Part shown: one piece after another, positions 13,269 through 35,427 of the stretch | Layout of the letters: every line of letters starts with the position of its first letter | Numbering within the stretch: position 1 is the first letter of the stretch | Made by a program: the position numbers and the translations under genes | NCBI GenBank assembly: GCA_018671245.1 | Contig: JABHIB010000008.1 | Location: 111,756-175,755, forward strand | Direction: 5' to 3' | DNA: 64,000 nt | From: an archaeon | GTDB taxonomy: Archaea > Nanobdellota > Nanobdellia > SCGC-AAA011-G17 > PNOQ01 | Notes under the pieces: generated by a model | Database searches by the model: none | The model's input: only the letters and a program-made list of their open reading frames with translations | What the model was told of the DNA's origin: nothing

Positions 13269-14474
13269 ATGTTAATAGAAATAATATTAGTAATATTAAT
13301 AGGTATCCTTGCAGGAATATTCACAGGTCTTATTCCCGGGATACATATAAACTTGATTGCCTTATTAATTCTAAGTTCAGCTCCAGCATTACTATCAGTT
13401 ACTTCACCCTTAATGATATCAATTTTTATTATTTCTATGTCAATCACTCATACATTTCTTGACACGATACCCTCAGTGTTTTTAGGAGCTCCAGAATCAA
13501 GCACTGCACTATCTGTACTGCCAGGACACAAATTATTACTTCAAGGAAAAGGTTATGAAGCAGTAATGTTGACATTAATTGGAAGTTTTTTGGCATTAAT
13601 TTTGGCAATATGTTTGGCCCCATTAATATCAATAATCATTTTAACAATATATTCGACTCTAAAAAAATGGATGGCACTAATTCTGATAACTTCATCAGCA
13701 TTCTTGATATTGAAAGAAAGAAAATCAAAAATGTGGGCACTAATCATATTTTTAACATCAGGTGTATTAGGTATAACTACCTTAAATTTTGCAAACTTAA
13801 CAAACCCCTTATTTCCTTTATTATCTGGATTATTTGGAACAAGTACATTAATAATAAGTTTATCTGAAAAAACAAAGATACCTATTCAAAAAATAACCTT
13901 TCCAATCATCAGTAAGAATGAATTATCAAAAGTAATGAGTTGTTCACTGCTTGCAGGAGGATTATGTTCTTTTCTTCCAGGACTAGGGCCTGCACAAGCA
14001 GCAATAATTGGATCATCTTTCTACAAGAAGATAACAGATAGAGGATTTTTAATATTGGTAGGAAGTTTGAATACGTTGAATATGGTACTAAGTTTTTTAG
14101 CACTATACATAATAGATAAAGCGAGAAATGGTGCAGTAATAACAATTTCAAAAATAATGGAGAAGATCACCATAAATGAATTAATCATCTTTTTTGGAGT
14201 CTCACTTGTAGTTGGTAGCATTGCAACAGTATTAACAATAAAGATAGCAAAAATATTTGCAAACATCATGTCAAAAATAAATTATCAAAAATTGATAATT
14301 TCAGTCATCTCACTAATTGTATTGATGGTATTTATTATATCTAGCCAGTTTACTGGATTATTAATACTATTAATTTCTACGTTTACTGGAATGTTACCTG
14401 TTAAATTAGGAATAGGAAGAAATCATTTAATGGGATGTTTATTATTGCCAGTAATTCTTTATTTCATACTCTGA
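13269..14474 (+). CDS. TctA/DUF112-like polytopic membrane protein
   Basis: 401 aa with about 10 TM helices. The N-terminal GILAGIFTGLIPGIH is reminiscent of TctA-family N-termini. Confidence 0.4.
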   Translation: MLIEIILVILIGILAGIFTGLIPGIHINLIALLILSSAPALLSVTSPLMISIFIISMSITHTFLDTIPSVFLGAPESSTALSVLPGHKLLLQGKGYEAVMLTLIGSFLALILAICLAPLISIIILTIYSTLKKWMALILITSSAFLILKERKSKMWALIIFLTSGVLGITTLNFANLTNPLFPLLSGLFGTSTLIISLSEKTKIPIQKITFPIISKNELSKVMSCSLLAGGLCSFLPGLGPAQAAIIGSSFYKKITDRGFLILVGSLNTLNMVLSFLALYIIDKARNGAVITISKIMEKITINELIIFFGVSLVVGSIATVLTIKIAKIFANIMSKINYQKLIISVISLIVLMVFIISSQFTGLLILLISTFTGMLPVKLGIGRNHLMGCLLLPVILYFIL

Positions 14475-14476
14475 TT

Positions 14477-17400
14477 TTAAGTTTCAAACCATGTACTAAG
14501 GCCTTCTTGTTTTTCTGGATCTTTCCCAAAAACACTATCTATTCTATTCTTTGTTAGATTTAATGTTTGTTTTAAATAATCGGGTAAATTATATTTTTCT
14601 GCCAATCCTAAAGAAGGTGCTAAATACTTCTTAACAGAACCTTCCGAAATAGTGAAAATTATTTTACCACCACATTTAGAACATTTTCCAATCAGAGGAG
14701 GTCTCCTATATTTCTCATTGCATCCAACACATCTAAATTTTTGCATAGAAAATTTCCTAAGATTACCCTTTATATCTCTAATAAAATGTTTTTCTATTAC
14801 TAATCCAGCAACATCTGATGCCTTGACAGCTCTTATCTTTTCAGCCAGAAACATCTGACCAAGAACTTTATCTTGCATAGTAGGCAATGATTTGTAAGCA
14901 CTGAAAACCACACCATTATTTATTGAAGAAGTATTATGAGTGTACCAATATTTTTCAAACTGTTTTTCAGTTTCAAGATTATCTGCAAGTTGTTCTATTT
15001 TTATTTCATGTGGCATTTTATAATTCATGCAAGCTTCATAAAACTCAAGCGGATATTCAGAAACCATATCCATATCAAAAACCATATCATCTACTTCAGT
15101 TGGAATTAATTTTGAAGTCAATACTAATGGTGCATCTTGAGTAGAACCTCTTCTTTGAGGTAAAAAATGTTTGGAGAAATTAATTAATCCATCCATCAAC
15201 AGCATTACTCCATTCTCATCGCCATCACAATCTCTTCTTTGAGCACTATGCCATAAAGGATGTGCATAACATCCTAAAGTATTAGAAAACCCAATTATTC
15301 TTCCAACAATTCCTGCAGAAGTATGAGGTGCAAGACTTATAATGAGGTGACCGACTAAGTCTTCTTTAGATTTTAAATTATAGAATTTATCACAATCATA
15401 AAATTTTTCTAACAAATCGTCTATGAAATTAGCAATTCTAAAAAATACAACATCTGCACATTCTTCAGAAGAAACATCACAAGCAGGAAGAATCACATCT
15501 TGAGGTTTTATCTCAATAATCTGTTCATGATCGTTCAATTGATCGCCATATATATCGACATCATAACCTATTTCTTTTAATTTTTCAATACTAGTGCCTA
15601 TCTCTGAAGGTTTGAAATGAGTTATCGGAAGTTCAGTCATATCATATCTGATAGTACCATCCTTATTTACAAATAGATTATGGATGGATCTCAAAATACC
15701 TTTAGTTAAATTCTCAGGAATACAAGTATTAGTCGATAATTCGCGAACACCCTTTACCAAAGAAGGCATAGAATTTAATGATAGTTTTTTTCTAACCTCT
15801 CCATAATATTCGTGTATATTTATTTTCTTTTTTTGATAAGCTTTTAATGGGATTTCATGAGCCTTGCAAAACTCAGAATCATAAAGTTTATCACATTGCC
15901 AACAATAATATTTTTTTTCAGTTTTTGAACCACATTTATGACAATTCAAATAAACAGATTCAGAATTACAAGTAGTACAAAAAAAAGATGGAAATTTAGA
16001 TTTGATACTTCCTATTTCTAAAGCAGACTCAAAACTTTTTAATCTGCCACCTTCTTCTCCGACAGGAAATAATACATGGGGACTTCCAAGCATTTTACGC
16101 ATTTTTGCTTTTTCTGGCCTCCCCATCCTAGCACCTATGATCATACCAGTTTTATCTCTTAATTTAATACTAATGATATTATTTAATATTTCAAGAATAT
16201 TTTTCGTTCCAGAAACTTTTTCAATAAGTTTTTTTAAACTATCTTCATTTTCTTCAAGACCTAAACTAACTAAAAAAGAAACTGCCCAATCTCCTTCAAT
16301 GACTATATGTTCTTTAGTTACATATTTATGAGGAACACCTAAAATTTCTAGTATACCTTTAGCATCAAATTCATCTTCAACATTAAACACAGGAAATATT
16401 ATTTTTTTATCTGCCCTATTAATTACAGATTTTGTAAGCCAATCTAATAAATATAAAAATTGTTTTTGATCTAAATCATTCCAATGAAATGTATATTTTG
16501 GATGAAGAGGTATATTCAAAGTTTTGGATAATTTTATCGCATCAGATGCATCTATTTTAGATTTTATAGGATCATTAAATAATCTTTTTATAAGAGGAAT
16601 ATCTACACCAGATATTTCAGATATCTTTTCGGAACTAATTTCTTTTTTTCGTAATTCTTTTACCCACCATTCCTCACAATATCCTGGAGGGACCAAAGGG
16701 TGTGCCCTATTAAAAAAATCACCATAACTAATTAGGATATCTCCAAGAAAAAGAATTTTATCTATATCTTTTTTAAATTTATCAAAATCTTCAAGAGTTT
16801 CTAAAAAAAGGACCTCCCCACTTTTCAACTTAACAATTGGACCTTCAATACTATCACAAGATCCTAGGGCAGTCCCCTTCCCAGGACGTTCCATCTTTAA
16901 TTGGGTTCCAACACCTATAAAATCATCCAGAACTTTCATAGTCACAGGATGTATTGCTGCAGAACTTAGTCCAGTATTTCTTCCACGACCATATCTTAAT
17001 CTAAATCCACCATACTGTCCAGGATAAGTTAAAACTGGTCTCCCTGCAGCAAGATCTTTAATAAAAGTATAATCTGCAGAAATAATAGAATCTCCTTTAC
17101 TATCTTCTTTTTTACCAGATTTAATCTTTTTTTGTAATTTGACAAATTCATAAATGAACTCCCAGTCATCCATCTCAAAATCTTTACCCCACCTAGAGAG
17201 TTGTGCAGAAACTTTTGCAGCTTTTTGAGCTAAACATTCGCCCATAACCAAACAAAAACCTCCCCTAACTCTATTTGTTTCTATTCTAGGCAAATCCTTA
17301 TAATTTGAAACTTCTATTTCTTCAGTTGGATCCCCATCTATCTGTATAGGTATTTTACTTGCAAAAAACTCAGTTTCTTCGGCAGAAGGAAAATATTGAA

Positions 17401-18028
17401 GATTAGTTACCCTTTCATGATAATCTCTTAATTCTGTAGAAGCCCTTTTTATTTCATTTGCACTAGGATCATAAGTAGAATATCCTAATTTTTTTCGAAT
17501 ATAATCTGCAAGCAGAACACATACAGATGCAGCAGTACCTCCTGCACTCCTAACAGGTCCAGAAAAATGTAAACAAAAATACTCTTTCGAATCATCTTTT
17601 CTTTTATTCAAAGTTAATTCTGTGAATCCCTCTACTGGACTAGCAACAACACCAACAGTAACATAAGCAAAACCGATCCTTATCCCTGTTTCAATAGCTT
17701 TGATTTTATTTTCAAATTTACAAAATTTTTCTTCAGCAACTTCCAAAGAGATAGAAAATGCGACTCTCCAATCCAATTTACCATACTCTTTTTCAAGTTC
17801 GAGTATCCTCTCAGGGATACCCTTATTTATTATTTCAGGAGCAAGAATACTAACTAACTTCTCTACCCTCTCAGCCAGATTCTTAGCAACAGGTATTTCA
17901 ACAATATTAGTTGGATCATATCCTCTTTTTTTTGCTTTTCCAGCAAGATCATATGCATGATGGAGATATTTATCAATATATTCAAAATATTGTTTTATAC
18001 TATCACTTTTTGCAAGTTCATTCCCCAA
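14477..18028 (-). CDS. dp2: DNA polymerase II (PolD) large subunit DP2
   Basis: 1183 aa. The N-terminus (YFEYIDKYL...GYDPTNIVEIPVAKNLAERVE) matches conserved DP2 starts. Internal Cys clusters and a C-terminal zinc finger (CVGCNEKY...CSKCGG) are present. It overlaps DP1 by 11 nt. Confidence 0.9.
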   Translation of the reverse strand: MGNELAKSDSIKQYFEYIDKYLHHAYDLAGKAKKRGYDPTNIVEIPVAKNLAERVEKLVSILAPEIINKGIPERILELEKEYGKLDWRVAFSISLEVAEEKFCKFENKIKAIETGIRIGFAYVTVGVVASPVEGFTELTLNKRKDDSKEYFCLHFSGPVRSAGGTAASVCVLLADYIRKKLGYSTYDPSANEIKRASTELRDYHERVTNLQYFPSAEETEFFASKIPIQIDGDPTEEIEVSNYKDLPRIETNRVRGGFCLVMGECLAQKAAKVSAQLSRWGKDFEMDDWEFIYEFVKLQKKIKSGKKEDSKGDSIISADYTFIKDLAAGRPVLTYPGQYGGFRLRYGRGRNTGLSSAAIHPVTMKVLDDFIGVGTQLKMERPGKGTALGSCDSIEGPIVKLKSGEVLFLETLEDFDKFKKDIDKILFLGDILISYGDFFNRAHPLVPPGYCEEWWVKELRKKEISSEKISEISGVDIPLIKRLFNDPIKSKIDASDAIKLSKTLNIPLHPKYTFHWNDLDQKQFLYLLDWLTKSVINRADKKIIFPVFNVEDEFDAKGILEILGVPHKYVTKEHIVIEGDWAVSFLVSLGLEENEDSLKKLIEKVSGTKNILEILNNIISIKLRDKTGMIIGARMGRPEKAKMRKMLGSPHVLFPVGEEGGRLKSFESALEIGSIKSKFPSFFCTTCNSESVYLNCHKCGSKTEKKYYCWQCDKLYDSEFCKAHEIPLKAYQKKKINIHEYYGEVRKKLSLNSMPSLVKGVRELSTNTCIPENLTKGILRSIHNLFVNKDGTIRYDMTELPITHFKPSEIGTSIEKLKEIGYDVDIYGDQLNDHEQIIEIKPQDVILPACDVSSEECADVVFFRIANFIDDLLEKFYDCDKFYNLKSKEDLVGHLIISLAPHTSAGIVGRIIGFSNTLGCYAHPLWHSAQRRDCDGDENGVMLLMDGLINFSKHFLPQRRGSTQDAPLVLTSKLIPTEVDDMVFDMDMVSEYPLEFYEACMNYKMPHEIKIEQLADNLETEKQFEKYWYTHNTSSINNGVVFSAYKSLPTMQDKVLGQMFLAEKIRAVKASDVAGLVIEKHFIRDIKGNLRKFSMQKFRCVGCNEKYRRPPLIGKCSKCGGKIIFTISEGSVKKYLAPSLGLAEKYNLPDYLKQTLNLTKNRIDSVFGKDPEKQEGLSTWFET

Positions 18029-19511
18029 AATTCATCACCTTTATTTCTCTTGTTTTCAAATTAACCAATTGTACTTTAGAAGGTTCTGGTTTATGACCTA
18101 CTTTTTCTTGAAAAGGAGTTTTAGATTGCCAACAGCTACCACAAATATTAGTAACCTTGCCATATTGATTAATAGCAGGTTTATGGACATGTCCAGCAAG
18201 AAAGAAATCTGGGACTTTAGTTATAGTTAAAAAATCATCATCTGGATCAGGAATAAATAAAGTTGAACCATGAGATGGTGCCAAATGCCTCTTTTGTAAA
18301 AGATATTTCATAACGAGGTCAGGTCGATCATATCCCCCATTATTTCTTATAATTCCAACATTGTTGATATAATAATCAAAACTATATCCATGATATAATA
18401 ATACATCAAAACCTTCAAAACCTTCTGATGCGTGAATATTGACAAAAGAAGGATTTGTAACAGATATAACATTAGGTAATTTTAATATAGTTTTTATGTA
18501 ATCTTTATCCAATATAGGTTGAGGTTCTGCAATCCTAACGGCATCGTGATTTCCAGGACAAATAATAATTTTAACATCTTTTCTTATCATACTTATTAAT
18601 TCTCCAAACTTGTCATATTGTTTGAATATGTCTTTTATATTTAATTCGTCATCTTGATTAGGATATATCCCTACACCATCCACAAGATCTCCGACAACAA
18701 ATAAGTATTTTACCTTTAAAGCAACATTTTTTTGTTCTGAATTACCTACGGTGCCATTAATCCATTTGATAAATTTTAAAAAATCATTTTCTAAAAACAT
18801 AGTAGACCCTACATGAACATCAGAGATTACCGCAAGATATATCTCTTCATCACATTTTTTCAAAACATCATTTTTTGGTACATCTGGAAAGTATAAATCA
18901 TCAGCAAAAACTACTTTATTGCCAGTAGAACCATTTATCCCTATTATTTCATCCAGACATAAATTGTTTGCATCTTCAAATAAAGGAATTTTATCTTTAG
19001 TAATTATTACTTTGATTGATCCTGTAAGGTCTTCAAGAGTTAGTATCATATTTTTATTTTTAGTTATATTTTTACTAGAAACATACCCTATCAAAGAAAC
19101 AGATTCTCTCTGCCTTTTATTTAAAATTTTATGAATAGAAATTGAATTTTCTAAACCTCTTTTAGATTGTAAGATTTTGCTGATTAAATTGAATCTTTTC
19201 TTATAATGTTGAGTAAAATCACTAACTTCTTTCTTTTTTGTAACTTCTGCATATTCTTTAGTGATAACAACAGGATAATCAGAATTATCAATATTTGGAA
19301 TAATAAGATCTTCTTCTTTTTCTAGATATAAAGATTTGTAAATTGAATTATTTAAGATTAATGAATTAGTCGAATATTTAGAAAAATCTTCAAAAAGATT
19401 ATTCAATTCTTCCATATTTTCACTATCTAAATTTTCCGATAAATCAGGATTCAATAAAATTCCTTTTTTCAGAAAAAAGTGAACAGTTTCTGATTTCATA
19501 AATTTAACCAA
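18018..19511 (-). CDS. dp1: DNA polymerase II (PolD) small subunit DP1 (calcineurin-like phosphoesterase)
   Basis: Phosphoesterase motifs ISDVHVGS, GDLVD and GNHD. 497 aa. Overlaps cdc6 by 16 nt. Confidence 0.9.
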   Translation of the reverse strand: MVKFMKSETVHFFLKKGILLNPDLSENLDSENMEELNNLFEDFSKYSTNSLILNNSIYKSLYLEKEEDLIIPNIDNSDYPVVITKEYAEVTKKKEVSDFTQHYKKRFNLISKILQSKRGLENSISIHKILNKRQRESVSLIGYVSSKNITKNKNMILTLEDLTGSIKVIITKDKIPLFEDANNLCLDEIIGINGSTGNKVVFADDLYFPDVPKNDVLKKCDEEIYLAVISDVHVGSTMFLENDFLKFIKWINGTVGNSEQKNVALKVKYLFVVGDLVDGVGIYPNQDDELNIKDIFKQYDKFGELISMIRKDVKIIICPGNHDAVRIAEPQPILDKDYIKTILKLPNVISVTNPSFVNIHASEGFEGFDVLLYHGYSFDYYINNVGIIRNNGGYDRPDLVMKYLLQKRHLAPSHGSTLFIPDPDDDFLTITKVPDFFLAGHVHKPAINQYGKVTNICGSCWQSKTPFQEKVGHKPEPSKVQLVNLKTREIKVMNFGE

Positions 19512-20686
19512 TTTTTTAATTTTTCAATTATATTTGAAATACTAGTAGAAGGGAGATTCATCACAATTTCTTTTTTCCTACCATATCTACCTTTACTAAT
19601 AACCTTTGTTCTTATAATTCCTAACATATCTAATTCTTCAATTAAATCTGATAATCTCCTATGAGTTAGAGGTTTTAATCCACATTTATTACAAATATCT
19701 TGATATTCTTCCGAAACATCACTGGTGTAAAATTTATCACTTTTTTTAAACAAATTAAAAATAGCTAGAAGAGTTATTTGTGATTGTTTTGGTAATGTCT
19801 TTATAGCATCAACAACTATTTCTTTATCTATTTTTTCTTCAGCATCATCAACATGTTTTAATAAAACTTTAGAGGCATCTTCCCTTTCTGCAAGTTCACC
19901 AGAGATTCTTAATAAATCTAAAGCCCTTCTAGCATCTCCATGTTCTCTAGCTGCTAGAGCAGCACATTTCTCAACAACACCATTACCCAGACACCCTTCT
20001 TTAAATGCAAATTTTGATCTTTGTTCTAAAATATCCTTTAATTGAATCGCATTATAGGGTGGAAAGTTCATTTCTTCTTCTGTTAATGAAGATTTAACTC
20101 TAGGATCAAGATCACTAGTAAACCTAAGATCGTTAGAGATACCAACAAAACAAACTTGAGCATTTTCTAATTCCTGATTGATTCTAGTTAGATTATATAA
20201 TAATTCGTCACCTTGTTTTTTCACTATTTGATCAATTTCGTCAAGAAGGAGTATAATTAACCTTTCTTTTGTATCTATCCTATTGAATAATTTTTTATAA
20301 ATCTCATTTCTAGGTAATCCTGTAAATGGAACATCTTCACCCAATTCTCTAGCTAAATGTGCTACCAAACGATATTCTGTATCTGCAACATTTTTTAATT
20401 TACAATTAACATAGAATATATCTAAAGGTACATTTTTAATTTCTGCAACTTTTTTAAGATCTTGGGCTACATTTAATGCAGATAAAGTTTTTCCAGTACC
20501 AGTTTTACCATATAAAAATATATTTGAAGGTTTTTCCAACCTAAGAGCAGGTGCTAATATTCGAGATAATTCTTGTATTTGTTCTTCTCTATGAGGTATA
20601 TTATTAGGAGTATGATTGATTTGTAATATATTCTTTTTGTCAAATAATCTTTCTTTATCAAGATACGATTCAAAATAATTTTTCAT
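19496..20686 (-). CDS. cdc6: Orc1/Cdc6 replication initiator
   Basis: AAA+ Walker A LYGKTGTGKT, Walker B LLLDEID and a C-terminal winged helix. First gene of the cdc6-dp1-dp2 operon. Confidence 0.9.
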   Translation of the reverse strand: MKNYFESYLDKERLFDKKNILQINHTPNNIPHREEQIQELSRILAPALRLEKPSNIFLYGKTGTGKTLSALNVAQDLKKVAEIKNVPLDIFYVNCKLKNVADTEYRLVAHLARELGEDVPFTGLPRNEIYKKLFNRIDTKERLIILLLDEIDQIVKKQGDELLYNLTRINQELENAQVCFVGISNDLRFTSDLDPRVKSSLTEEEMNFPPYNAIQLKDILEQRSKFAFKEGCLGNGVVEKCAALAAREHGDARRALDLLRISGELAEREDASKVLLKHVDDAEEKIDKEIVVDAIKTLPKQSQITLLAIFNLFKKSDKFYTSDVSEEYQDICNKCGLKPLTHRRLSDLIEELDMLGIIRTKVISKGRYGRKKEIVMNLPSTSISNIIEKLKNWLNL

Positions 20687-20771
20687 ATTATATTAACCTC
20701 ATTTTTTATTACACAATCAAACAAGTTATTTAAAGATTATTATAATAAAATATTCACACCAGGACCCTTAT

Positions 20772-20805
20772 TTCCAATGGAATGAATTTTAATTTTGATT
20801 TAGGG
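20772..20805 (+). promoter_or_regulatory. ORB-like element 1 (mini-ORB palindrome TTCCAATGGAA plus downstream G-string)
   Basis: Sequence tttccaatggaatgaattttaattttgatttaggg. Confidence 0.45.
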
Positions 20806-21103
20806 TTTTTCGATTATCAAAAATTAACAAATTTTGTAGAAACTTTAGAATGATAACAAAAAATAAAATAAACTATATTATATATATTATATAATAAAAA
20901 AACTTAAAAAATAAAAAATAAAAAATAAAATCGAATTCTTGATTATTGTTAACCTACAAATACCTCTACTATCAAAATTATAAAATATTATTATTTTATT
21001 AAAATTATAAAATTATAAAATAAAAATATACAAAATAAAGTAAATATAATTGAAAATATTATTAAAACTCAACACGATAGTATACAGATAACAAAAAATA
21101 AAT

Positions 21104-21130
21104 TTCCATAAGAAAAAGGGGTCAGAGGGT
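21104..21130 (+). promoter_or_regulatory. ORB-like element 2 (TTCCA...GAAA...GGGGT...GGGT)
   Basis: Sequence ttccataagaaaaaggggtcagagggt. It is G-rich within an otherwise AT-only tract. Confidence 0.45.
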
Positions 21131-21191
21131 ATAACAAAATAAATAAAATTCAATAAATAATTTTATATACTAGTATAATCAAATTAATCAT

Positions 21192-21500
21192 ATGAATCTA
21201 ACATTATTATTAATATCTTTACTAGCTACAATATTTGTTTTTGAATTTACAAAACATTTCATAACAAAAACTATGTTTAAAGTAGTTTTAATAACAGTAT
21301 TAGTATCGATAGTATTTTTTATTATGATAGAAGGATTATCTGATGATGATGAATTCAAAAATAGTAATGCTATTCTTAAAACAGGATCAGTAATAGTTGA
21401 TACTGTAAAAGATCAAGAAGTAATGGAAGATTTTTCAATAAAAGAGTTCTGGCCTATAAAGAAAATAAAAAATTTTTTCATTAATGAAGAAGAATGGTAA
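21192..21500 (+). CDS. small membrane protein; stop codon TAA lies inside the 9-bp direct repeat flanking the transposon
   Basis: 102 aa with 2 TM helices and an acidic C-terminus. The stop is at 21498-21500. Confidence 0.3.
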   Translation: MNLTLLLISLLATIFVFEFTKHFITKTMFKVVLITVLVSIVFFIMIEGLSDDDEFKNSNAILKTGSVIVDTVKDQEVMEDFSIKEFWPIKKIKNFFINEEEW

Positions 21501-21505: not shown

Positions 21506-21530
21506 TTCATTGGTGCATTAAAGGTTGGTA
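21506..21530. repeat. left terminal inverted repeat TTCATTGGTGCATTAAAGGTTGGTA
   Basis: The reverse complement of 29204-29228 is TTCATTGGTGCATAAACGGTTGGTA, identical at 23 of 25 positions. Confidence 0.6.
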
Positions 21531-21582
21531 GAATAAATTGAGTTAATATAATCTATTCTTTGCTTATTTTTTATTGAAGAAA

Positions 21583-21792
21583 CTATGTCTTTCTTCCTTT
21601 AACTATTTTAATCTTATTCTTCAAACTAAGAATCTCTTTTTCTTTTCTAATTTTAACTCTAACCTTTTCTTTATCTTTCATAAGTTTTGCTTTTTCTTTC
21701 TCTAAATAATTCTCTGCCCTCTCAAGTTTTACTAAATCTTTCTCTAACTTTTTCAATTTGGGACTAGATAATTCCCTTTTTTCTGTTTTCAT
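21583..21792 (-). CDS. small lysine-rich coiled-coil protein (transposon cargo)
   Basis: 69 aa, all K/E/L heptads. Last gene of the cargo operon. Confidence 0.3.
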   Translation of the reverse strand: MKTEKRELSSPKLKKLEKDLVKLERAENYLEKEKAKLMKDKEKVRVKIRKEKEILSLKNKIKIVKGRKT

Positions 21793-21833
21793 CCTCTTTT
21801 TATATTTTTACAATGAATTCCTTACTTATATAC

Positions 21834-23216
21834 TTAACTCTCCAACTTTTCTAAAATATTCTCATCAACAATCACAATATGTCCAATGCTTTTAACATTC
21901 TTGTATTTAACAATAATTCCCTTAGTTTTAAGATTTTGTTTTTTATCTAATCTAATTCTTAAACTATCAATCTTATTTTCTCCCAAGAGAACTTCATCAA
22001 CCTTTCCAATATAATTCCCTTCCCCACAATAAACTTCCCTTTTAATCAAACCTTTGATGCTATTCTTAGGATGTTTATTTATTCTATTAATTTCAATTTT
22101 TTCTATAATCTTTTTTTTATAAACAAAAGCCATTAATCCAAACAATCCGATTATTAGAAGAAATCCGAGAACATTCCAATTGTTATTAACTATACTTGAG
22201 CCACCAACAACAAAACCAGTCATAGTATTTCTTCCGATAAACAAAATTCCTACTAACATAAATCCAACAAGAATTATTAAGAAAGTTTTACCCTTAATTC
22301 TTTTCAAATTTTTCTTAATCTTGCTTTTGTATTCCTTATGTGTCTTTGGCTTTCCTACTTTTTTCTTTATTATTTTAAATTTAGATTTAAATAATCTAAT
22401 GATTAGCAAAATCAATAATACTGCAACTACACCTATAATTCCATAAACCAAATACATCCAATTAAAATTTTTTACAGGGAGTAAAGCACATTCTTCTTGA
22501 GATAAAACTTCAAAGGTTTCTCCTGCAACAGCAGTTTTATTCCCACTATAAGCAATTTCAGCATATAACCTGTATGTTCCTTGAGAAGCTGAATCTGGAA
22601 CTTTTAGTTCTATGTTGAAGCTTGTTTCTTTTTCAACAGCTCTTGTGTCCTTGTATTCAGTAATTAATTTATTATTTTTATCAATAATCCAATAAGTCAT
22701 AAAAGCATCAAGAAGTTCTACTTTAGCATAATTTTCCAATTTTACATTTGCTTTAATCTTTTTTCCAGAACAAATCTCTTTATATCCATCTTCTAAATTT
22801 AAATAAATATCAAATAAAGGTTCTGATGGGCCAAGATATTCACAAATTTGTGTTTGATTTGGCATTCCTTTTGTTCCAGTGCAATCTCCTTTATTTGCAC
22901 AAATTCTTTCTTGTATCCCTGATTCTGGGCAGATAGATGGAAACCACTCTGTACATTGCCAGTCATAAGTACACTTGCTTCCTCCAGAACTTCCTCCTCC
23001 AGGATTTGGAGTTGTGGGACAAGCTCCGCAATCTCCTGGGCAAGTTGAACAGCTTTCTCCATTATTGCAAATTCCATCTCCGCAATATAAAGACGGTGTT
23101 GAAATTTCAGAGTAATTTCCAGAACCATAAATCCCTTCTCCATAGTTACCTGCAGAAACTAATGGAATTAGAACTAATATTAATGCAAAAAAAATAAGTT
23201 TTTTTTTGATTATCAT
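21834..23216 (-). CDS. signal-peptide, Cys-rich extracellular domain, TM, C-terminal PRC-barrel-like protein
   Basis: Signal peptide MIIKKKLIFFALILVLIPLVSA and Cys cluster CGDGICNNGESCSTCPGDCGACP. TM helices near residues 255-275 and 300-360. The C-terminal 70 aa (YCGEGNYIGKVDEVLLGENKIDSLRIRL...IVIVDENIL) resemble a PRC barrel. Confidence 0.45.
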   Translation of the reverse strand: MIIKKKLIFFALILVLIPLVSAGNYGEGIYGSGNYSEISTPSLYCGDGICNNGESCSTCPGDCGACPTTPNPGGGSSGGSKCTYDWQCTEWFPSICPESGIQERICANKGDCTGTKGMPNQTQICEYLGPSEPLFDIYLNLEDGYKEICSGKKIKANVKLENYAKVELLDAFMTYWIIDKNNKLITEYKDTRAVEKETSFNIELKVPDSASQGTYRLYAEIAYSGNKTAVAGETFEVLSQEECALLPVKNFNWMYLVYGIIGVVAVLLILLIIRLFKSKFKIIKKKVGKPKTHKEYKSKIKKNLKRIKGKTFLIILVGFMLVGILFIGRNTMTGFVVGGSSIVNNNWNVLGFLLIIGLFGLMAFVYKKKIIEKIEINRINKHPKNSIKGLIKREVYCGEGNYIGKVDEVLLGENKIDSLRIRLDKKQNLKTKGIIVKYKNVKSIGHIVIVDENILEKLES

Positions 23217-25642
23217 CTTATACTCCCTCCTGGATTAATTACAAATTTACATCCATCTTCTTTATAAATTTCCCAATGAGAACTAGTAAAACTCATATTC
23301 GCATTCCAAGTTAGAGTTCCAGAACCAGTAATTGTAATATTATTTGGGACTATAAAATTAGTATCCCAAACACAATTATCAGAACATGTAATTGCCCAGT
23401 TTCCAGAATCTGGGGCTGTGCAAGTATTGAGAGCTATTGTGATTTTTCTTGTCTTAGTAATATTTAAATTTCCCCCGGTATCAATTGCATAAGCAGTATA
23501 ATTATAATTTCCAAGATTTAAATCTGTGAAATTGTTATGTAAATTATATAATCCATTATCATAAGAGGCGTTGATCTCTTCTGGACTTAATGCTCTTGAA
23601 TATATTTTGACTTCATCAATATCTCCCTTAAATAAATAACCTGCACTATTTCCTGATGCTCCTATTCTTGTAACTGCAGCACCCTTGGTTGCGGTTAATG
23701 CCTTAAAATTAGCAGAAGTTAAAGGATAATCCATTATTTCTACACCATTTACATAAACTGTTGCGGTTGTTCCATCCCAAGAGTTAACAACATGATACCA
23801 TGTATCTAATTCTGCAACAATACTTGTACCTCCAGATTGATAAGTCGGTCCACTAGCACCTGCACCTATTGTTGCAGTTATGTGGTGTGAAGTTGCTTCT
23901 AACCCAATAAAAAAAACAGAACTACCAACACTGGTTCCATCATTTCTATGAAGTGGGGTTCGCCATCCACTAGGTAAGTCTGCTGTTCGTCTTATCCAAG
24001 CTTCAACAGTCATAGCATCATAATTTCCATCAGCAGTACTTCCAAGATTAATATAATCGTCTACCCCATCGAATTCCAAAGAATATCCATATTTTCCAGT
24101 TACTAAACTTTCTTCTCCAAAATCCGCCCCAGTAAAAATTCCAAAATTATCATAACTTGAATTATCATAAACACCTGATGCATTTGTATTTTCAAAATTC
24201 CAATATCCTAACAAAGAATAATTCCAATCAAAAAATGCTGAAGTATCTAATCCGTCTGTTATTGTTGTATTTAAATAAACAAAATTTTCACTTTTTGTAT
24301 CTCCATCTGTAGGTGTGGGAGGTTCCCAAATTACTACTGGAGGATCTTGATCCACAATTGTTAAATCACTTGAATTTCCCCATTCACTATATGCTCCATC
24401 ATATAATCTCATACCACATTTCCAGACATCCCCTGAACTAGTATTTCCAGAATCTAAAACTGCATTAAATTCATAATTATTAGGATAACTTTCATTATAA
24501 TCAACAGTTAAATTCAAAACACCATCTTTATACCATCTTACTGTAACATTCATAGCATCTTCATCAATATCTAAGAGTGTATCATAACAATTTAAATCTT
24601 GATTATTTAAATTACTTCCATCAGTTGAATTAATTTCAGGAGTTGGTGTCTCTGGAGGGCCACTTACAGCAACAGTAACATTTCTTGAATCTATATTTAA
24701 ATTACCTTCTTCATCCAGAACATAAGCAGAATAATTATAAATTCCATTTTCAAGAGAAGAAAAATTATGATAAAGTCTATTTGCAGTATTATTATATAAT
24801 GCACCAATTTCTTCTGCACTTAATGCACGTTCCACAATCAATACTTCATCTACCTTACCTTTATATTGATAATTAGCACCATTACTGGATGCACCAATTC
24901 TTGTGGGAGTTGTTAAAGTATTATATGTTGCTAAAGCATATTCTTTGTTATATTCACCATTTAGATAAACTACAACATCAGTCCCATTCCAAACAGCAGC
25001 TATGTGCCACCATTCCCCATAAGTTGCAAGTTGTGTAGTTCTTCCTGCATACCAACCACCAGGGGCACCTGAATTAGCTCCAATAGTAGCAGTTAATAAA
25101 TTATCATTACTAACACCTAACCAATATGAACTTGAACCAATCGTTGTCGAAGTTGCATGATGTAAAGCACATTCATAAGAAGGGCCATCAGCAGTTTTGT
25201 AAAGCCAAGAAGCAATCGTAAGTTCGGTAGGATTACTAACAACAACATTATCTGTTTTAATATAGTCATTCACTCCATCAAATTCTAAAGCATTTCCATA
25301 TTTTCCGGTGGTTATATTTGAAGTAGTTGGTCCTCTTCCACCAAAAGTCATGAAGTTATCATAACTTGAATTATCAAAAACTCCTGTTGAATTTGTATTT
25401 TCAAAATTCCAATATCCTAACAAAGAATAATCCCAGTCAAAAAAAGCAGAAGTTTCATTATCATCGGTTATAGTTGTATTAAGATAAACCCAAGCATTTT
25501 CAGTTATATCTCCATCTGGAGGGGTTGGGGGTTCCCAAGTTATAGTTGGAGTATCAGCACTAACTAAAGCCAGAGAAAAACTAAATAATAAAAATATAAA
25601 AAAGGTTAAAATTATCTTTTTTTTTAATAATCTTTGTTTCAT
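23213..25642 (-). CDS. secreted protein with two tandem LamG/ConA-like lectin-type domains (internal duplication)
   Basis: Signal peptide. Two about 400-aa repeats each begin (T/V)(I/V)TWEPPTPxDGD...YLNTTITD...SAFFDW(D/N)YSLLGYWNFENTN. They contain LEFDGV(N/D)DYI...WYHxxxxWNGT...VYxNGE blocks characteristic of the LamG/pentraxin fold. Many N-x-S/T sequons. Confidence 0.6.
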   Translation of the reverse strand: MKQRLLKKKIILTFFIFLLFSFSLALVSADTPTITWEPPTPPDGDITENAWVYLNTTITDDNETSAFFDWDYSLLGYWNFENTNSTGVFDNSSYDNFMTFGGRGPTTSNITTGKYGNALEFDGVNDYIKTDNVVVSNPTELTIASWLYKTADGPSYECALHHATSTTIGSSSYWLGVSNDNLLTATIGANSGAPGGWYAGRTTQLATYGEWWHIAAVWNGTDVVVYLNGEYNKEYALATYNTLTTPTRIGASSNGANYQYKGKVDEVLIVERALSAEEIGALYNNTANRLYHNFSSLENGIYNYSAYVLDEEGNLNIDSRNVTVAVSGPPETPTPEINSTDGSNLNNQDLNCYDTLLDIDEDAMNVTVRWYKDGVLNLTVDYNESYPNNYEFNAVLDSGNTSSGDVWKCGMRLYDGAYSEWGNSSDLTIVDQDPPVVIWEPPTPTDGDTKSENFVYLNTTITDGLDTSAFFDWNYSLLGYWNFENTNASGVYDNSSYDNFGIFTGADFGEESLVTGKYGYSLEFDGVDDYINLGSTADGNYDAMTVEAWIRRTADLPSGWRTPLHRNDGTSVGSSVFFIGLEATSHHITATIGAGASGPTYQSGGTSIVAELDTWYHVVNSWDGTTATVYVNGVEIMDYPLTSANFKALTATKGAAVTRIGASGNSAGYLFKGDIDEVKIYSRALSPEEINASYDNGLYNLHNNFTDLNLGNYNYTAYAIDTGGNLNITKTRKITIALNTCTAPDSGNWAITCSDNCVWDTNFIVPNNITITGSGTLTWNANMSFTSSHWEIYKEDGCKFVINPGGSIR

Positions 25643-25643
25643 T

Positions 25644-27554
25644 TTAACTCTGGATTATTATTCCACTCCCATTATGATACATTTTAGCTGAGCAGTCTGC
25701 GGTGAAACAAAAAGTATCTGTTGTTGTAATATTTCCAGTTGCATTAATATCCCCCGCAACATCTAAATTTCCAGTCATAGCATCTCCACTAACATTAACA
25801 AATGCATTATCAGCATCACTTGCGGTTATGGCATTTTCCACACACCCAGTTATTTCAGAACACTCATCTTGTCCTGCAAGAGCACTATCGATTTCTGATT
25901 CTGTATAAAATAAACTTGTTAACCAACTCACCAAAATACTCAAAGTTCCATCATTATTCTCCATTTGAGTTTCATTAATAGTATTCAGGTTATCCCAATA
26001 ATCTGATGAATTAACATTTAAATCAGATTCCTCACCATCATCTATCCAATCATCTTGATTAATATCCATATAAAGTGTATCAGCTAATGATTGATTCCAA
26101 CTTGAGTTATCTCCTGTAACACTTATGCTTGCATACAAAGTGTCAGCATAAGTTTTGTTCCAATCATCTCCATAATTCACCGGAGCATAATTGTCATCAA
26201 GCAAAGTTGTCAAATCTGATTCTTCATCATAAAATATTGTTCTTGCATAACTTTCATTCCAGGATGAATTATCTCCTGCAACTCCAGAAATCTGATTATC
26301 AACATAATCTTTCATTGAATCATTAAAGATAACATCTTGTGTATCTGCATAAGCATTAGCTGGAATTGTTTGGTTGTAAGCCCAAGTGTCATAAGTTGCA
26401 TTGTATGTTGAAAGCCAGCTAGCTTCTTGTGAAGTTATATAATCAAACACAGGTGTAGATTGATTGTAATCCCATTCAATTCCTGCATAAAGTGTATCAG
26501 CTAATGATTGATTCCAACTTGAGTTATCTCCTGTAACACTTATGCTTGCATACAAAGTGTCAGCATAAGTTTTGTTCCAATCATCTCCATAATTCACCGG
26601 AGCATATAAAGTGTCTGTCAAAGATTGATTAAAAGAGGAGTTTCCTCCAGAAATTCCATCAATCCTTGTGCTCAAAGAAGAATTAACTGAATTAATTAAA
26701 TCTGTTTCATTATAATTATCTGCTATATTATCAATTGTATTATTTAACTTAGTTTCATTAAAGTAAATGGTGGTGGTATCATTATATAAATAATTTCCAT
26801 CTGCTGTTTTTTGTGTGTCTATTCCTCCCCCCCAACGAGAATCCCCTGTGTTGTTAAATATCTCATCCCATATTGTTGGAATTTCTGGTTTGTTTGTCAA
26901 GTCATTATAATCTTTATCCCATGCAGAATAAATAGGATCAGATTCACTTGTTAAATAACTCTGCAAATCACTTATCTGCGATTCTTCAATTGTAACATTG
27001 CTCCAGTCATCTGAATAAACTTTTGAAGCATAAATATTAGTAACATACAAATTCGCCCATTTTAACAATGAACTTCCTAAATTAAATAAATTATTAATCT
27101 CTGGAAGAAAAGAGCCATTTAAATATTGATTAGTTACAGTCGCATTAAGATAGCTTCCGATTAAAGATAAATTACCATTGATTATTACATTTCCATCAAT
27201 TGTTCCCCCTTCATCTTTGTCAAGATAATTAGCATCATTTGTGAACTTGCTGATTGTAACTTCTGTTAGATCTATCTTGCTTGAATTAATAGAATCATCA
27301 GCTAAATCTTCGGCACTAAGAGTTCCATCTAAAATATGGGAAGTATTTATGGAGGAAGAATAAATATTTGTCCCGTTCACCATTGTTTCATTTAATTTAA
27401 CTCCATCACTACCTGCAATTTTTGATAAAAAATCATTAAGGACCGTTCCCCAATCATTTTCATCTCCTCCTATAGTTGGAAGACGAGATGCGGATACCAA
27501 ACTCATCATCAATAAAATAAATATTCCAATTAAAAATAATTTACTTGCCCTCAT
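25644..27554 (-). CDS. secreted sequon-rich surface (S-layer-like) protein with internal near-identical repeat
   Basis: Signal peptide MRASKLFLIGIFILLMMSLVSA and more than 30 N-x-S/T sequons. The peptide block LTDTLYAPVNYGDDWNKTYADTLYASISVTGDNSSWNQSLADTLY occurs twice, encoded by about 120-bp identical DNA copies at 26068-26188 and 26486-26606. Confidence 0.5.
   Translation of the reverse strand: MRASKLFLIGIFILLMMSLVSASRLPTIGGDENDWGTVLNDFLSKIAGSDGVKLNETMVNGTNIYSSSINTSHILDGTLSAEDLADDSINSSKIDLTEVTISKFTNDANYLDKDEGGTIDGNVIINGNLSLIGSYLNATVTNQYLNGSFLPEINNLFNLGSSLLKWANLYVTNIYASKVYSDDWSNVTIEESQISDLQSYLTSESDPIYSAWDKDYNDLTNKPEIPTIWDEIFNNTGDSRWGGGIDTQKTADGNYLYNDTTTIYFNETKLNNTIDNIADNYNETDLINSVNSSLSTRIDGISGGNSSFNQSLTDTLYAPVNYGDDWNKTYADTLYASISVTGDNSSWNQSLADTLYAGIEWDYNQSTPVFDYITSQEASWLSTYNATYDTWAYNQTIPANAYADTQDVIFNDSMKDYVDNQISGVAGDNSSWNESYARTIFYDEESDLTTLLDDNYAPVNYGDDWNKTYADTLYASISVTGDNSSWNQSLADTLYMDINQDDWIDDGEESDLNVNSSDYWDNLNTINETQMENNDGTLSILVSWLTSLFYTESEIDSALAGQDECSEITGCVENAITASDADNAFVNVSGDAMTGNLDVAGDINATGNITTTDTFCFTADCSAKMYHNGSGIIIQS
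26068..26606. repeat. two about 120-bp identical direct repeats (period about 418 bp) inside the surface-protein gene
   Basis: cataaagtgtatcagctaatgattgattccaacttgagttatctcctgtaacacttatgcttgcatacaaagtgtcagcataagttttgttccaatcatctccataattcaccggagcata is present at both positions. Confidence 0.7.
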
Positions 27555-27723
27555 TTTTACTTCCCTCTTTTTTTACTGCAAGCCAATTCATCACAATAGC
27601 ACGAACAATCTCCGCATCACTCTCACCAAAGATATCTTGATATTCTCTCATAATTTCCATTTGTTTTTTAGTGAATGTTACCTGAACTTTTACAACTTCT
27701 TTCTTCTCTATCTTAGTTCCCAT
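27541..27723 (-). CDS. small ribbon-helix-helix-like protein, first gene overlapping the cargo operon
   Basis: 60 aa. A beta-strand segment VKVQVTFTKKQ is followed by two helices (MEIMREYQDIF, AEIVRAIVMNWL), the CopG/Arc-type arrangement. Its stop overlaps the start of 25644-27554 by 14 nt. Confidence 0.35.
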   Translation of the reverse strand: MGTKIEKKEVVKVQVTFTKKQMEIMREYQDIFGESDAEIVRAIVMNWLAVKKEGSKNEGK

Positions 27724-27897
27724 ACATAGAGGAATGTTTTAAGAGTATTTAAAGATTTCTATTATAATCTAATTAGAATGTTATTAGAATATATTAAGAT
27801 GTCTCAGAAATTTGACTGGCTCCGAAATCTGCTCCGCTTGATTTCTCCGCTAAAAAATCTATTAATGTAAAAAGAATTCTTAAGTTGGAGGTCAATT

Positions 27898-28038
27898 ATT
27901 ACTTCTTCTTGGGTTTATTCCAGTATGGGCTTTTACACTTAGGGCAAATAATTGGCTTTTCCTTTTTATTTCTTGGTGCCCATTCATGTCCACATCTCTC
28001 ACATTTGTAACCCTTAATCTTAATTGTTATTTCTGCCA
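27898..28038 (-). CDS. unannotated 46-aa zinc-ribbon protein with lysine tail
   Basis: Reverse complement reads MAEITIKIKGYKCERCGHEWAPRNKKEKPIICPKCKSPYWNKPKKK. The CxxC...CPxC pattern is the same as in the C-terminus of 38142-38543. Below the ORF-track length cutoff. Confidence 0.35.
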
Positions 28039-28213
28039 TAATTAGAATTAGGATAATGTATATATAAATCTTACCTTTTAGGGTATTACCTATATAGTAA
28101 TAACTTTATAGCCGAAACATTTAAATAGTTTACTTACCTTAATAAGTTATACCTAATTAGGTAAATATAAAGAGGGCTCCGAAGAGCCCTAGATTCCATC
28201 CAACGCAAATCAA

Positions 28214-29140
28214 ATGAAATCTAACAATGTAAAAAAGAGCAAGTATAAAAAACTTTCTTGTCCTAATTGCAAATCAAAAAATATAATCAAATGGACAAAA
28301 AGAAAAACAGAAAATAGAGGATTAATTCAGAGATATAAATGCAATGATTGTGATAAAACATTTACAATAAATGATGGTTTCTTTAGAATGAGAAATCATC
28401 CCAAAAAAATAACTTGTGCTTTAGATTTATTTTATAGAGGAGTTTCAACAAGAAAAGTTCAAGAACATTTTAAGGCATTTTATCCTCATAATGCAGATCA
28501 TACTTCTGTTTTAAGATGGCTTAGAAAATATTCAATAATGATTTCAAAATTCACAGATAATCTTTATCTTAATATCGGACAAGAAATTCAAATTGATGAG
28601 ATGGAATATCACAGAAGGAAATTCTATAATAAAAAGGGTGTAGATAAAAATTGGTTCATTGATTGTATTGATAGTAGAACAAGATTTATGATTTCTTCTG
28701 AATATGTTAAAGCAAGAGAACAAAAAGAACTAAAATTTGTTTTATCAAAAGCAAAACAAAAAACAGGGGAGCAAGTTAAGATTGTAACTTCTGATGGACT
28801 TCTTGCTTATCCAAATGCTATTAAGAAAGTTTATGGATTTTCAAATAAAACTCATAAACTTAATGTTTATCATAATCAGGTTAATGCTTCAAAAGGTGAA
28901 GGGTTTAACATCATGATTGAAAGATTGCACAATTCAATAAGAGAAAGAACTAAAACTTTTAGAGGTTTTCATGGTTCTGTTGAAAGTGCAAATGCAATAA
29001 TGAAGGGTTATGAAATATTCTATAACTTCATAAGAAAACATCAGTCAATCAAAAGATGTCCTTATGAACTTGCTATCCCAAAATTGAAACTTAATTCTGA
29101 AAATAAATGGATGGAGTTGATTAAAATGGCAAACGAATAA
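28214..29140 (+). CDS. IS6-family transposase (DDE) with N-terminal zinc-ribbon extension
   Basis: N-terminal CPNCKS...CNDCDK zinc ribbon. HTH block GVSTRKVQEHF...DHTSVLRWLRKY aligns with IS26 TnpA (GISYRELQEML...DHSTIYRWVQRY). DDE blocks IQIDEMEY...W.IDSRTR, VTSDGLLAYPNAI and IERLHNSIRERTK match IS26 HMDETYV, TDKAPAY and IECDHGKLKR. Confidence 0.85.
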   Translation: MKSNNVKKSKYKKLSCPNCKSKNIIKWTKRKTENRGLIQRYKCNDCDKTFTINDGFFRMRNHPKKITCALDLFYRGVSTRKVQEHFKAFYPHNADHTSVLRWLRKYSIMISKFTDNLYLNIGQEIQIDEMEYHRRKFYNKKGVDKNWFIDCIDSRTRFMISSEYVKAREQKELKFVLSKAKQKTGEQVKIVTSDGLLAYPNAIKKVYGFSNKTHKLNVYHNQVNASKGEGFNIMIERLHNSIRERTKTFRGFHGSVESANAIMKGYEIFYNFIRKHQSIKRCPYELAIPKLKLNSENKWMELIKMANE

Positions 29141-29203
29141 TAAAATAAAAAACCCACAATGGAAACTTCGGTTAAAATTTCAAAGATGGAATTATATTGA
29201 AAT

Positions 29204-29228
29204 TACCAACCGTTTATGCACCAATGAA
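29204..29228. repeat. right terminal inverted repeat TACCAACCGTTTATGCACCAATGAA
   Basis: Reverse-complementary to 21506-21530 (23/25). Followed by the 9-bp direct repeat at 29229-29237. Confidence 0.6.
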
Positions 29229-34557: not shown

Positions 34558-34576
34558 TCTAGTTTATTCATTCGTT

Positions 34577-34646
34577 ATTCACTCATTAAGCACTTACTAA
34601 TCACTCATTAACCCTCATTATTCACTCATTAAGCACTTACTAATCA
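34577..34646 (+). repeat. two copies of 26-bp direct repeat TTCACTCATTAAGCACTTACTAATCA separated by 18 bp, within a CACTCATT-motif-rich tract (34565-34775)
   Basis: Exact copies at 34577-34602 and 34621-34646. Additional CTCATT(A/C) half-sites extend to 34770. Lies upstream of the wHTH paralog gene at 34816. Confidence 0.6.
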
Positions 34647-34815: not shown

Positions 34816-35427
34816 ATGTCTGAAAAAAACATAAAAAAGTCATTTTCAAAGGTCAAGGCAGATGTATCCTTGCTTTCTACTAAGATTTTGTCTATGGAAT
34901 CCAAATTAGATCGAATTCTTACTATAATTAATGAAAAAGAGTCAAAAAATGAAGAAATTAAGGCTTTTAAGGTGCCTTTTACCCGAATTTGTGCTAATTC
35001 CACTGGAAATAAGGGGGTTCAATCAATCAATCAATCACTAAACAATCATTCAACAGTCAATCATTCATTAAGCGATCAATCACTAAATATTCAATCTTTA
35101 AGAAAAGATATAGAATCTAGATTTGTAACTTTAACAAATAAGGAGTTTTTAGTATTTTTAACAGTATATCAGCTAGAGGAAGACCTTGAAAGAGGAATAA
35201 CTTACTATGATCTGTCTTCTAAGATTGGTCTCACTGCAGGATGTATAAGGGGGTATGTGAGTGCAATACTGCGCAAAGGATTACCTTTAATTAAGAGAAA
35301 AATTAACAATAGAACCATAACCTTACACATAGAATCTGAGTTTAGGAAGTTAGATGCAAAAGAAACTCTCACTACACTCTTTTATCACAATGATCCTAAC
35401 CAAAAGAGGCTTATTTCTCGAGATTAA
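34816..35427 (+). CDS. coiled-coil / repeat / C-terminal winged-HTH protein (paralog A)
   Basis: N-terminal coiled coil. A middle block (VQSINQSLNNHSTVNHSLSDQSLNIQSL) is encoded by CAATCA-type microsatellite DNA at 35020-35100. The C-terminal HTH LTNKEFLVFLTVYQLEEDLERGITYYDLSSKIGLTAGCIRGYVSAILRKGLPLI aligns with the C-terminus of 35488-36042. Confidence 0.45.
   Translation: MSEKNIKKSFSKVKADVSLLSTKILSMESKLDRILTIINEKESKNEEIKAFKVPFTRICANSTGNKGVQSINQSLNNHSTVNHSLSDQSLNIQSLRKDIESRFVTLTNKEFLVFLTVYQLEEDLERGITYYDLSSKIGLTAGCIRGYVSAILRKGLPLIKRKINNRTITLHIESEFRKLDAKETLTTLFYHNDPNQKRLISRD

Follow-up and report, generated by a model that had tools for sequence, protein, structure and literature searches.

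A predicted oriC1-type replication origin with an inverted pair of origin recognition boxes beside the cdc6 and PolD genes of a DPANN archaeon

Introduction

Among the archaeal origins of replication that have been described, the oriC1 loci of Sulfolobus and Aeropyrum offer a close comparison for the locus considered here. These place inverted origin recognition boxes (ORBs) around an AT-rich DUE beside the orc1-1 gene, and each ORB takes one Orc1-1 in a defined polarity (PMC12141716). In its published minimal form the pattern reads ORB(-)/DUE/ORB(+), with the initiator gene alongside. A second useful comparison is the oriC of Pyrococcus and the Thermococcales, where the gene order is oriC-cdc6-dp1-dp2 and a pair of long ORBs makes up an inverted repeat. 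ORB1 and ORB2 of P. furiosus are bound by Cdc6 in gel-shift assays, and Pyrococcus has numerous 13-nt mini-ORBs besides, together with a further cluster of Cdc6-bound ORBs that lies outside oriC, inside dp1 (PMC1904270).

Here, we describe a locus that shares features with both and comes from a DPANN archaeon, placed with the Woesearchaeota/Nanoarchaeota by its closest Cdc6 homologues and related loci. The sequence analyzed is a stretch of 64 kb, referred to below as the window, which is also found in the NCBI metagenome-assembled genome GCA_018696235.1. DPANN archaea are, to our knowledge, uncultivated, with replication origins known by prediction alone. An initial annotation of the window had proposed a candidate oriC with ORB-like elements upstream of a cdc6-dp1-dp2 operon and had suggested that its architecture would be atypical. 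Comparison with related genomes favors the first of these proposals and not the second.

Materials and Methods

As a comparison set, 80 related Woesearchaeota/Nanoarchaeota cdc6 loci were fetched. Unbiased k-mer enrichment was carried out on the cdc6-upstream spacers of 75 relatives, measured against the rest of each locus, and a 30-nt position weight matrix (PWM) was refined on 202 sites taken from relatives only. Counts of layout refer to the 58 relatives whose loci reach 900 nt or more upstream of cdc6. The search for origins and ORBs covered the 64 kb of the genome that make up the window.

Results

Gene neighborhood and initiator

The initiator gene, a cdc6/orc1 of the Orc1-1 type encoding 396 aa, occupies 19496..20686 on the minus strand (Pfam Cdc6_C, Cdc6_lid, and AAA). 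It is followed on the same strand by the PolD small subunit DP1 at 18018..19499 (Metallophos and DNA_pol_E_B) and the large subunit DP2 at 14477..18028 (PolC_DP2 N-terminal, central, and catalytic domains), and these Pfam matches bear out the identities first given to all three genes. In 78 of 79 relatives the gene immediately after cdc6 is DP1, and DP2 is found downstream in 70 of 72. This is the gene order of Pyrococcus and the Thermococcales, and the presence of PolD genes after cdc6 sets the window apart from Sulfolobus and Aeropyrum; we know of no PolD in Crenarchaeota.

Two overlaps had been reported within this group of genes. The 11-nt overlap of DP1 and DP2 stands, with DP2 starting at a TTG at 18028 that has a GGTGA Shine-Dalgarno sequence before it, but the 16-nt overlap of cdc6 and DP1 was counted from an upstream TTG. 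At this junction, as read from the sequence, the DP1 ATG at 19499 and the cdc6 stop codon together form an ATGA overlap, and the resulting 493-aa DP1 product is the gene-caller output on identical contigs; the overlap is most likely 4 nt. Upstream of cdc6 itself there is a Shine-Dalgarno sequence, GAGGT, at 20696-20700 and a putative TATA box at 20727..20734, which precedes the ATG by 41-48 nt and reads TTTAAATA on the cdc6 (minus) strand. The 95% relative has the block AATCTTTAAATAAC in identical form.

Transcription of cdc6, DP1, and DP2 leaves the spacer on one side, and that of a divergent open reading frame leaves it on the other. The latter, at 21192..21500 on the plus strand, forms the far-side boundary of the predicted origin and encodes a hydrophobic product of 102 aa with no Pfam match; an orthologous ORF of 102/103 aa is called in the same place in relatives. 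Beyond it, the ancestral order continues with PRC-barrel, LonB, and ArgRS genes, which adjoin it directly in those relatives that are free of the insertion discussed below.

Among solved structures, the window Cdc6 is most like S. solfataricus Cdc6-1 (2QBY_A, 2.6e-100) and A. pernix ORC1 (2V1U, 1.4e-96). Both alignments are full-length, running from end to end, and both of these structures are of Orc1 proteins crystallized on ORB DNA; the Cdc6-3 and ORC2 paralogues match far more weakly. The motifs that contact DNA have been kept, namely PFTGL in the ISM, RR in the HTH, and GRYG in the wing, and the winged helix is present as the Pfam Cdc6_C domain.

Two origin recognition boxes and their orientation

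A single motif, roughly TTTCCAnnnGAAAtnAAGG(G/T)GTG, dominated the k-mer enrichment of the relatives' spacers, in which TCCATAGGAA occurs 23 times against 0.1 expected. When the matrix built from relatives was run over the 64 kb window, exactly three sites exceeded 8 bits, at 25.0, 23.8, and 22.9 bits, and the next-best, non-ORB match reached 7.9. The first two of these lie upstream of cdc6 and include the motifs that had been singled out as ORB-like, TTCCAATGGAA at 20772-20782 and TTCCATAAGAAAAAGGGGTCAGAGGGT at 21104-21130; both motifs are present there, and the scores uphold the likeness.

The proximal ORB, ATTCCATTGGAAATAAGGGTCCTGGTGTGA, occupies 20754..20783 on the minus strand, with its 5' end 97 nt upstream of the cdc6 ATG (23.8 bits), and the distal ORB, TTTCCATAAGAAAAAGGGGTCAGAGGGTAT, occupies 21103..21132 on the plus strand, with its 5' end 417 nt upstream (25.0 bits, of which 16.0 from the core and 9.0 from the tail). 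Each box consists of a 13-nt dyad, TTCCAnnnGAAAt, with a G-rich tail GG(G/T)GT... 3-4 nt later, and each agrees with the consensus at 10 of 10 high-information positions. The dyad core of the proximal box lies at 20770-20782 and its tail is directed toward cdc6; that of the distal box is directed away from it. With the minus-strand box on the left and the plus-strand box on the right, the two form an inverted pair with outward tails.

Known ORBs provide an external check on the matrix. On it, ORB1 of P. furiosus reaches 21.0 bits and ORB2 19.9, nearly all from the 13-nt dyad core, which is nearly identical to that of the window (17.5 and 16.8 bits for the two cores); these high scores argue that the window motifs genuinely belong to the general archaeal class of origin recognition boxes. 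The P. furiosus tails contribute only 3.1-3.5 bits, because the G-string of Pyrococcus (TTCCAGTGGAAATGAAACTCTGGGGGG) stands about 11 nt past the dyad, compared with 3-4 nt here. In crenarchaeal ORBs the G-rich tail follows the dyad by only a few nucleotides, like that of the window's clade, and in Sulfolobus and Aeropyrum, as in the window, an ORB is made up of a dyad plus an asymmetric G-rich element. No crenarchaeal ORB sequence for direct comparison was found in the literature examined.

The initial annotation had read both elements in the same orientation, counting a GGG at 20803 as part of the proximal one. What speaks for such a reading is that the proximal core TTCCAATGGAA is palindromic and can be read on either strand. 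Scored on the plus strand, however, the site falls to -7.0 bits (core 8.0, tail -15.0), compared with 23.8 on the minus strand (core 16.8, tail 7.0), where the core continues as ...GGAAATAAGGGTCCTGGTGTG and carries the G-rich tail AAGGGTCCTGGTGTG. This minus-strand tail is much like the proximal tails of relatives L005, L007, and L008 and is conserved in L084, L087, and L096. The GGG is unrelated, standing 20 nt from the core in a clade where the spacing is 3-4 nt. A palindromic core had been read on the wrong strand and joined to an unrelated GGG, and the same-orientation architecture therefore falls; an atypical origin with two ORBs facing the same way is, in our judgment, very improbable. 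With each box on its correct strand, the supposed atypical architecture becomes the textbook arrangement ORB(-)/DUE/ORB(+), and the layout of the pair, with the initiator gene adjoining, is that of the published minimal pattern.

Conservation of the layout

An outward-facing inverted pair of ORBs, at matching positions and spacing, is found in 54 of the 58 relatives. The proximal box has a median position of -102 in relatives (-97 in the window) and the distal box one of -400 (-417), and the median spacing is 296 nt (IQR 206-330), compared with about 320 nt here. Both boxes are conserved in L084, L087, and L096. In two of these, L087 (71% Cdc6 identity) and L096 (75%), the spacer has largely diverged and the boxes are retained as footprints.

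These observations bear on whether the motifs could have arisen by chance in an ordinary AT-rich divergent promoter region of a genome with 30% GC. The genome is indeed AT-rich (69% on average), and core-only matches are scattered over the window at 12 against 4.5 expected. Chance would still have to account for two full ORBs of at least 23.8 bits within 350 nt, when the control DNA of relatives holds no match of at least 20 bits over 789,254 positions, for the conservation of box position and orientation across the clade, and for boxes that persist as footprints in diverged relatives. We give this explanation practically no credence.

The number of boxes does vary. L096 carries one additional proximal ORB, and 20 of the 58 relatives have an additional ORB-like site over the cdc6 TATA box or leader. 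Neither the second proximal ORB nor the promoter-overlapping ORB of many relatives is present in the window; the counterpart of the extra L096 box is degenerate here, and the window thus carries the minimal two-box version. By comparison, Sulfolobus has three ORBs and Aeropyrum four.

It is important to consider whether such boxes might be Orc1 sites that act mainly as operators, autoregulating cdc6-polD and the divergent gene, with replication starting elsewhere or independently of an origin. About 20 nt separate the end of the proximal ORB from the putative cdc6 TATA box downstream, and the promoter-overlapping sites of those 20 relatives would suit an operator. Origin-independent replication is documented in Thermococcus kodakarensis (PMC5663688), and Orc1 paralogues are able to regulate transcription (PMC9738581). 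A pure operator role nevertheless leaves unexplained why an inverted pair, about 300 nt apart, should be conserved around the most AT-rich DNA of the region in 54 of 58 genomes, and the promoter-overlapping site is wholly missing from the window. Regulation and origin function are, moreover, compatible with one another. We regard operators acting mainly in place of an origin as unlikely, and prefer the origin reading for the pair.

The AT-rich spacer

The intergenic region directly upstream of cdc6, at 20687-21191, is 505 nt long and 83.8% AT. Its middle part, 20880-21090, had been described as almost pure A+T; it is very AT-rich, but 88.2% falls short of that description. Between the two ORBs lies a spacer of 319 nt (20784..21102), the presumed duplex unwinding element, in which AT content reaches its highest values of the entire 64 kb over 100, 200, and 300 nt alike (0.95, 0.91, and 0.877, the mean being 0.69). 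These maxima are more than 4 SD over the window mean. Similarly, the spacers of relatives are 81% AT compared with 64% for their loci. Please note that AT-richness alone has little weight where the genome is 69% AT. An AT-rich DUE flanked by inverted ORBs next to the initiator gene is also what Sulfolobus and Aeropyrum display (ORB2-DUE-ORB3), although the window spacer, at about 320 nt, is longer than theirs.

A 22-nt TA-step block, TATATTATATATATTATATAAT, identical in the 95% relative, lies within the spacer at 20874..20895, some 90 nt away from the proximal ORB. Words of the ATATAATATAT type occur in 16-19 of 53 relatives' spacers compared with about 1-2 expected, ATATAATATAT itself in 16 of 53 against 0.8. 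Spacers of a sister lineage carry a palindrome, TTTCTATATAGAAA, in mid-spacer. Nothing corresponding to the Sulfolobus ucm motif was identified in the window, whose lineage has the TA-step block instead.

The spacer holds no PWM match above 0 bits other than the two ORBs, and the window thus differs from Pyrococcus in having no mini-ORBs there. It also differs in having no ORB cluster in dp1. A Pyrococcus-like cluster was looked for in that gene and not found, the best dp1 match in the window scan being 7.9 bits, within shuffle noise. A sub-threshold match recurs inside DP1 of six relatives, with coding constraint as its probable driver.

Two further features of the spacer were considered and set aside. 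A 16-nt direct repeat, GATAACAAAAAATAAA, occurs at 20852 and 21087; repeats of at least 16 nt arise in 1.3% of Markov resamples, and it is absent as a conserved element in the 71% relative. As it is only mildly unusual and lacks conservation in that relative, it was not assigned a role. A non-coding RNA was dropped from consideration in the absence of any Rfam family match to the spacer.

Strand skew and a nearby insertion

Just past the divergent 102-aa ORF, beside the predicted origin, sits a strain-specific insertion of 7.7 kb (21506..29228). It holds four large minus-strand ORFs and an IS240-type transposase, the latter recognized by a Pfam match. L084, L085, and L087 lack the insertion and are colinear with the window on both of its flanks. 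The insertion is separate from the origin and displaces the skew minimum.

A skew inflection near 20.7-21.2 kb had been expected of an origin at this place. The cumulative G-C minimum lies in fact at 28288 in the raw sequence, because of the insertion, and moves to 21271 when the 7.7 kb are excised, a shift that we do not count as independent support for the origin. Coding strands are G-rich throughout the window, and the cumulative curve therefore mostly tracks the direction of the genes. Gene orientation diverges from the spacer, with 69% of coding bp co-directional to the left and 76% to the right. Third codon positions show no clear-cut change of polarity at 21 kb, and coding-strand GC3 skew is higher in minus-strand genes on both sides of the spacer. 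We rejected skew as a decisive origin test for this locus, whether raw, insertion-excised, or at third positions, as G-richness of the coding strands dominates here.

A third box

No better ORB cluster was found elsewhere in the window. The only other full ORB, ATTCCACTGGAAATAAGGGGGTTCAATCAA at 34997..35026 on the plus strand (22.9 bits), is a lone box inside an ORF of 203 aa at 34816-35427 that encodes a coiled-coil/HTH protein, and the PWM scan of the window revealed no inverted partner for it. L096 has an ORB of 26.4 bits at the same codons of a host protein that is 56% identical. Where the two proteins have identical residues, the codons are identical in 9 of 9 cases inside the ORB compared with 66 of 111 outside it (p=0.012). 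These comparisons give the third ORB the appearance of an isolated Orc1 site that has been conserved; with the insertion discounted, it stands about 6 kb away from the predicted origin.

A second origin at this site was considered and rejected: there is neither an inverted partner nor an AT-rich spacer at the usual distance. The surrounding region contains small ORFs, repeats with a period of about 11 nt, and a short tyrosine recombinase. It might be taken, from the recombinase, the HTH ORFs, and the repeats, for a recently integrated mobile element with an origin of its own, and this was not supported. The chromosomal context of the block is always the same, its gene order is common to L096, and the viral contig collection holds no relatives of it.

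Discussion

Motif matrix, clade-wide layout, and initiator agree on the candidate oriC with ORBs upstream of cdc6-dp1-dp2, and this proposal has all the support that sequence comparison can give. We consider it very probable that the 505 nt at 20687-21191 are an oriC1-type archaeal chromosomal replication origin that belongs to the adjacent Orc1-1-type initiator gene. The genome may hold further origins beyond the 64 kb analyzed.

To what is observed of the locus (its anatomy, the statistical significance and orientation of its boxes, the clade-wide conservation of its layout, and the identity of its initiator) we would add a mechanism drawn by analogy from the Sulfolobus, Aeropyrum, and Pyrococcus systems, from which Orc1 binding, MCM loading, the site of melting, and firing in vivo are inferred. 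One Orc1 monomer would occupy each box with a fixed polarity, placing its winged helix on the dyad and its AAA+ ISM on the G-rich tail. Two ATP-bound Orc1 molecules would then bring MCM to the AT-rich 319 nt that separate the boxes. Melting would probably begin at the TA-step block (20874-20895) or close to it, and bidirectional replication would follow. It should be remembered that T. kodakarensis can dispense with both Cdc6 and an oriC comparable to this one (PMC5663688), and therefore a well-formed origin need not be the origin in use.

The third ORB invites comparison with Cdc6-bound ORBs that have been described outside the origin proper. Lying a few kb from the predicted origin, it resembles the Pyrococcus dp1 cluster, and also the downstream ORB cluster of Haloarcula hispanica that has been proposed to regulate oriC2 negatively. 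It differs from both in being single and inside an unrelated HTH-protein gene. One possibility, which we offer as speculative and rather doubtful, is that it is a distal Orc1-binding site controlling the nearby origin, through datA-like initiator titration or negative regulation, or else that it couples Orc1 occupancy to its host HTH-protein gene. As part of the same speculation, the mid-spacer elements, that is, the TA-step block and the TTTCTATATAGAAA palindrome, might be DPANN counterparts of ucm bound by an accessory protein.

Conclusions

By all of these comparisons, the region appears to be a canonical oriC1-type origin, newly described for its lineage and of a kind that is well known, and the accepted model of archaeal initiation is unchanged by it. 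Together with 80 relatives, the locus gives a clade-specific ORB consensus, TTTCCAnnnGAAAtnAAGG(G/T)GTG, and a highly regular two-box architecture. It is our hope that these will prove useful for anchoring genome coordinates, for interpreting growth estimates based on read depth, and for marking a recurrent assembly breakpoint.

A third origin recognition box within coding sequence

A lone full origin recognition box (ORB, a 13-nt dyad core with a G-rich tail) lies at 34997-35026 (+), within an ORF encoding a 203-aa coiled-coil/HTH protein and, with the insertion described below discounted, some 6.2-6.5 kb from the candidate origin upstream of cdc6. It is kept at identical codon positions (13495-13524, +) in L096, a relative with 75% Cdc6 identity, in host proteins that are just 56% identical. 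Between the window and L096, all of the synonymous sites in this ORB are conserved (9/9, vs. 66/111 outside it; p=0.012). It lacks an inverted partner.

The surrounding region contains a paralogous pair of coiled-coil/HTH ORFs that face each other, at 34816-35427 (+) and 35488-36042 (-). Arrays of short repeats with a period of ~11 nt, of the CACTCATTAAG / CACTTACTAAT type, are also found here, one upstream of the 203-aa ORF (34561-34646) and another directly 3' of the third ORB (35025-35100). A short tyrosine recombinase of 204 aa, comprising the catalytic Phage_integrase domain only, is encoded at 37180-37794 (+). Since it occupies the same chromosomal position in L096, it is less likely to be a prophage integrase than an Xer-like recombinase resident in the chromosome.

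Elements between the origin ORBs

Within the origin spacer of the window, an exact 16-nt direct repeat, GATAACAAAAAATAAA, occurs at 20852-20867 and 21087-21102, the second copy adjoining the distal ORB. When the spacer is resampled with a Markov model, 1.3% of the resamples contain a repeat of this length. The one in the window is kept in the 95% relative (L084) and not in the relative with 71% Cdc6 identity.

Some related origins carry another element: of 53 inter-ORB spacers, 13 have the perfect palindrome TTTCTATATAGAAA near their middle, against 0.1 expected (L030, L032, L037, L041, L045, L048, L064, L067, L068, L071, L072, L073, and L083), and recalls the essential ucm motif in the DUE of Sulfolobus. 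The palindrome is missing from the window, whose lineage carries a TA-step block instead.

Insertion and assembly breaks beside the origin

A strain-specific insertion of 7.7 kb (21506-29228), not present in the 95% and 71% relatives, immediately adjoins the origin. It encodes an 809-aa LamG-domain protein, ORFs of 460 and 636 aa, and an IS240-type transposase (28214-29140), and it contains both an exact 120-nt repeat (26070-26189 and 26487-26606) and a 304-nt repeat of 76% identity (24048-24346 and 25257-25555).

Among the 80 related contigs (L004-L083), 21 terminate <700 nt upstream of cdc6, in or just past the origin spacer, vs. one that terminates equally close downstream. Assemblies tend to break at the origin, which is very AT-rich and bears TA repeats.

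Additional ORB-like sites and ORB number

A perfect 13-nt dyad core, TTCCATTGGAAAT, without the G-rich tail (17.7 bits, core only), is located at 208-220 (+) within a 770-aa ORF (171-2483); it is similar to the scattered, unbound lone mini-ORBs reported in Pyrococcus. A recurrent sub-threshold match, ATTCAATAAGAAATCAAGGTGG (11-14.5 bits), falls at a homologous DP1 coding position in six relatives (L011, L024, L028, L029, L059, and L071; between ~+2350 and +2476, counted from the start of cdc6), has no equivalent in the window, and may just reflect a conserved peptide.

The window also lacks an additional opposite-strand ORB-like site that 20 of 58 relatives carry between -18 and -51 from the start of cdc6, the tail of which merges into the cdc6 TATA box (…GAAACAAAGGTTTATAAATA…; for example, L036, L049, L055, L057, and L071). 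In the genomes that have it, this arrangement suggests autoregulation of cdc6 by Orc1.

L084 has a mini-ORB core, TCCAGATGAA, beside its distal ORB (~2590-2615, ~25 nt inside), which is mutated away in the window, and in L096 the proximal ORB is accompanied by another full one (26.0 bits), the window counterpart of which is degenerate (~20826-20850). The number of ORBs is thus variable among close relatives.
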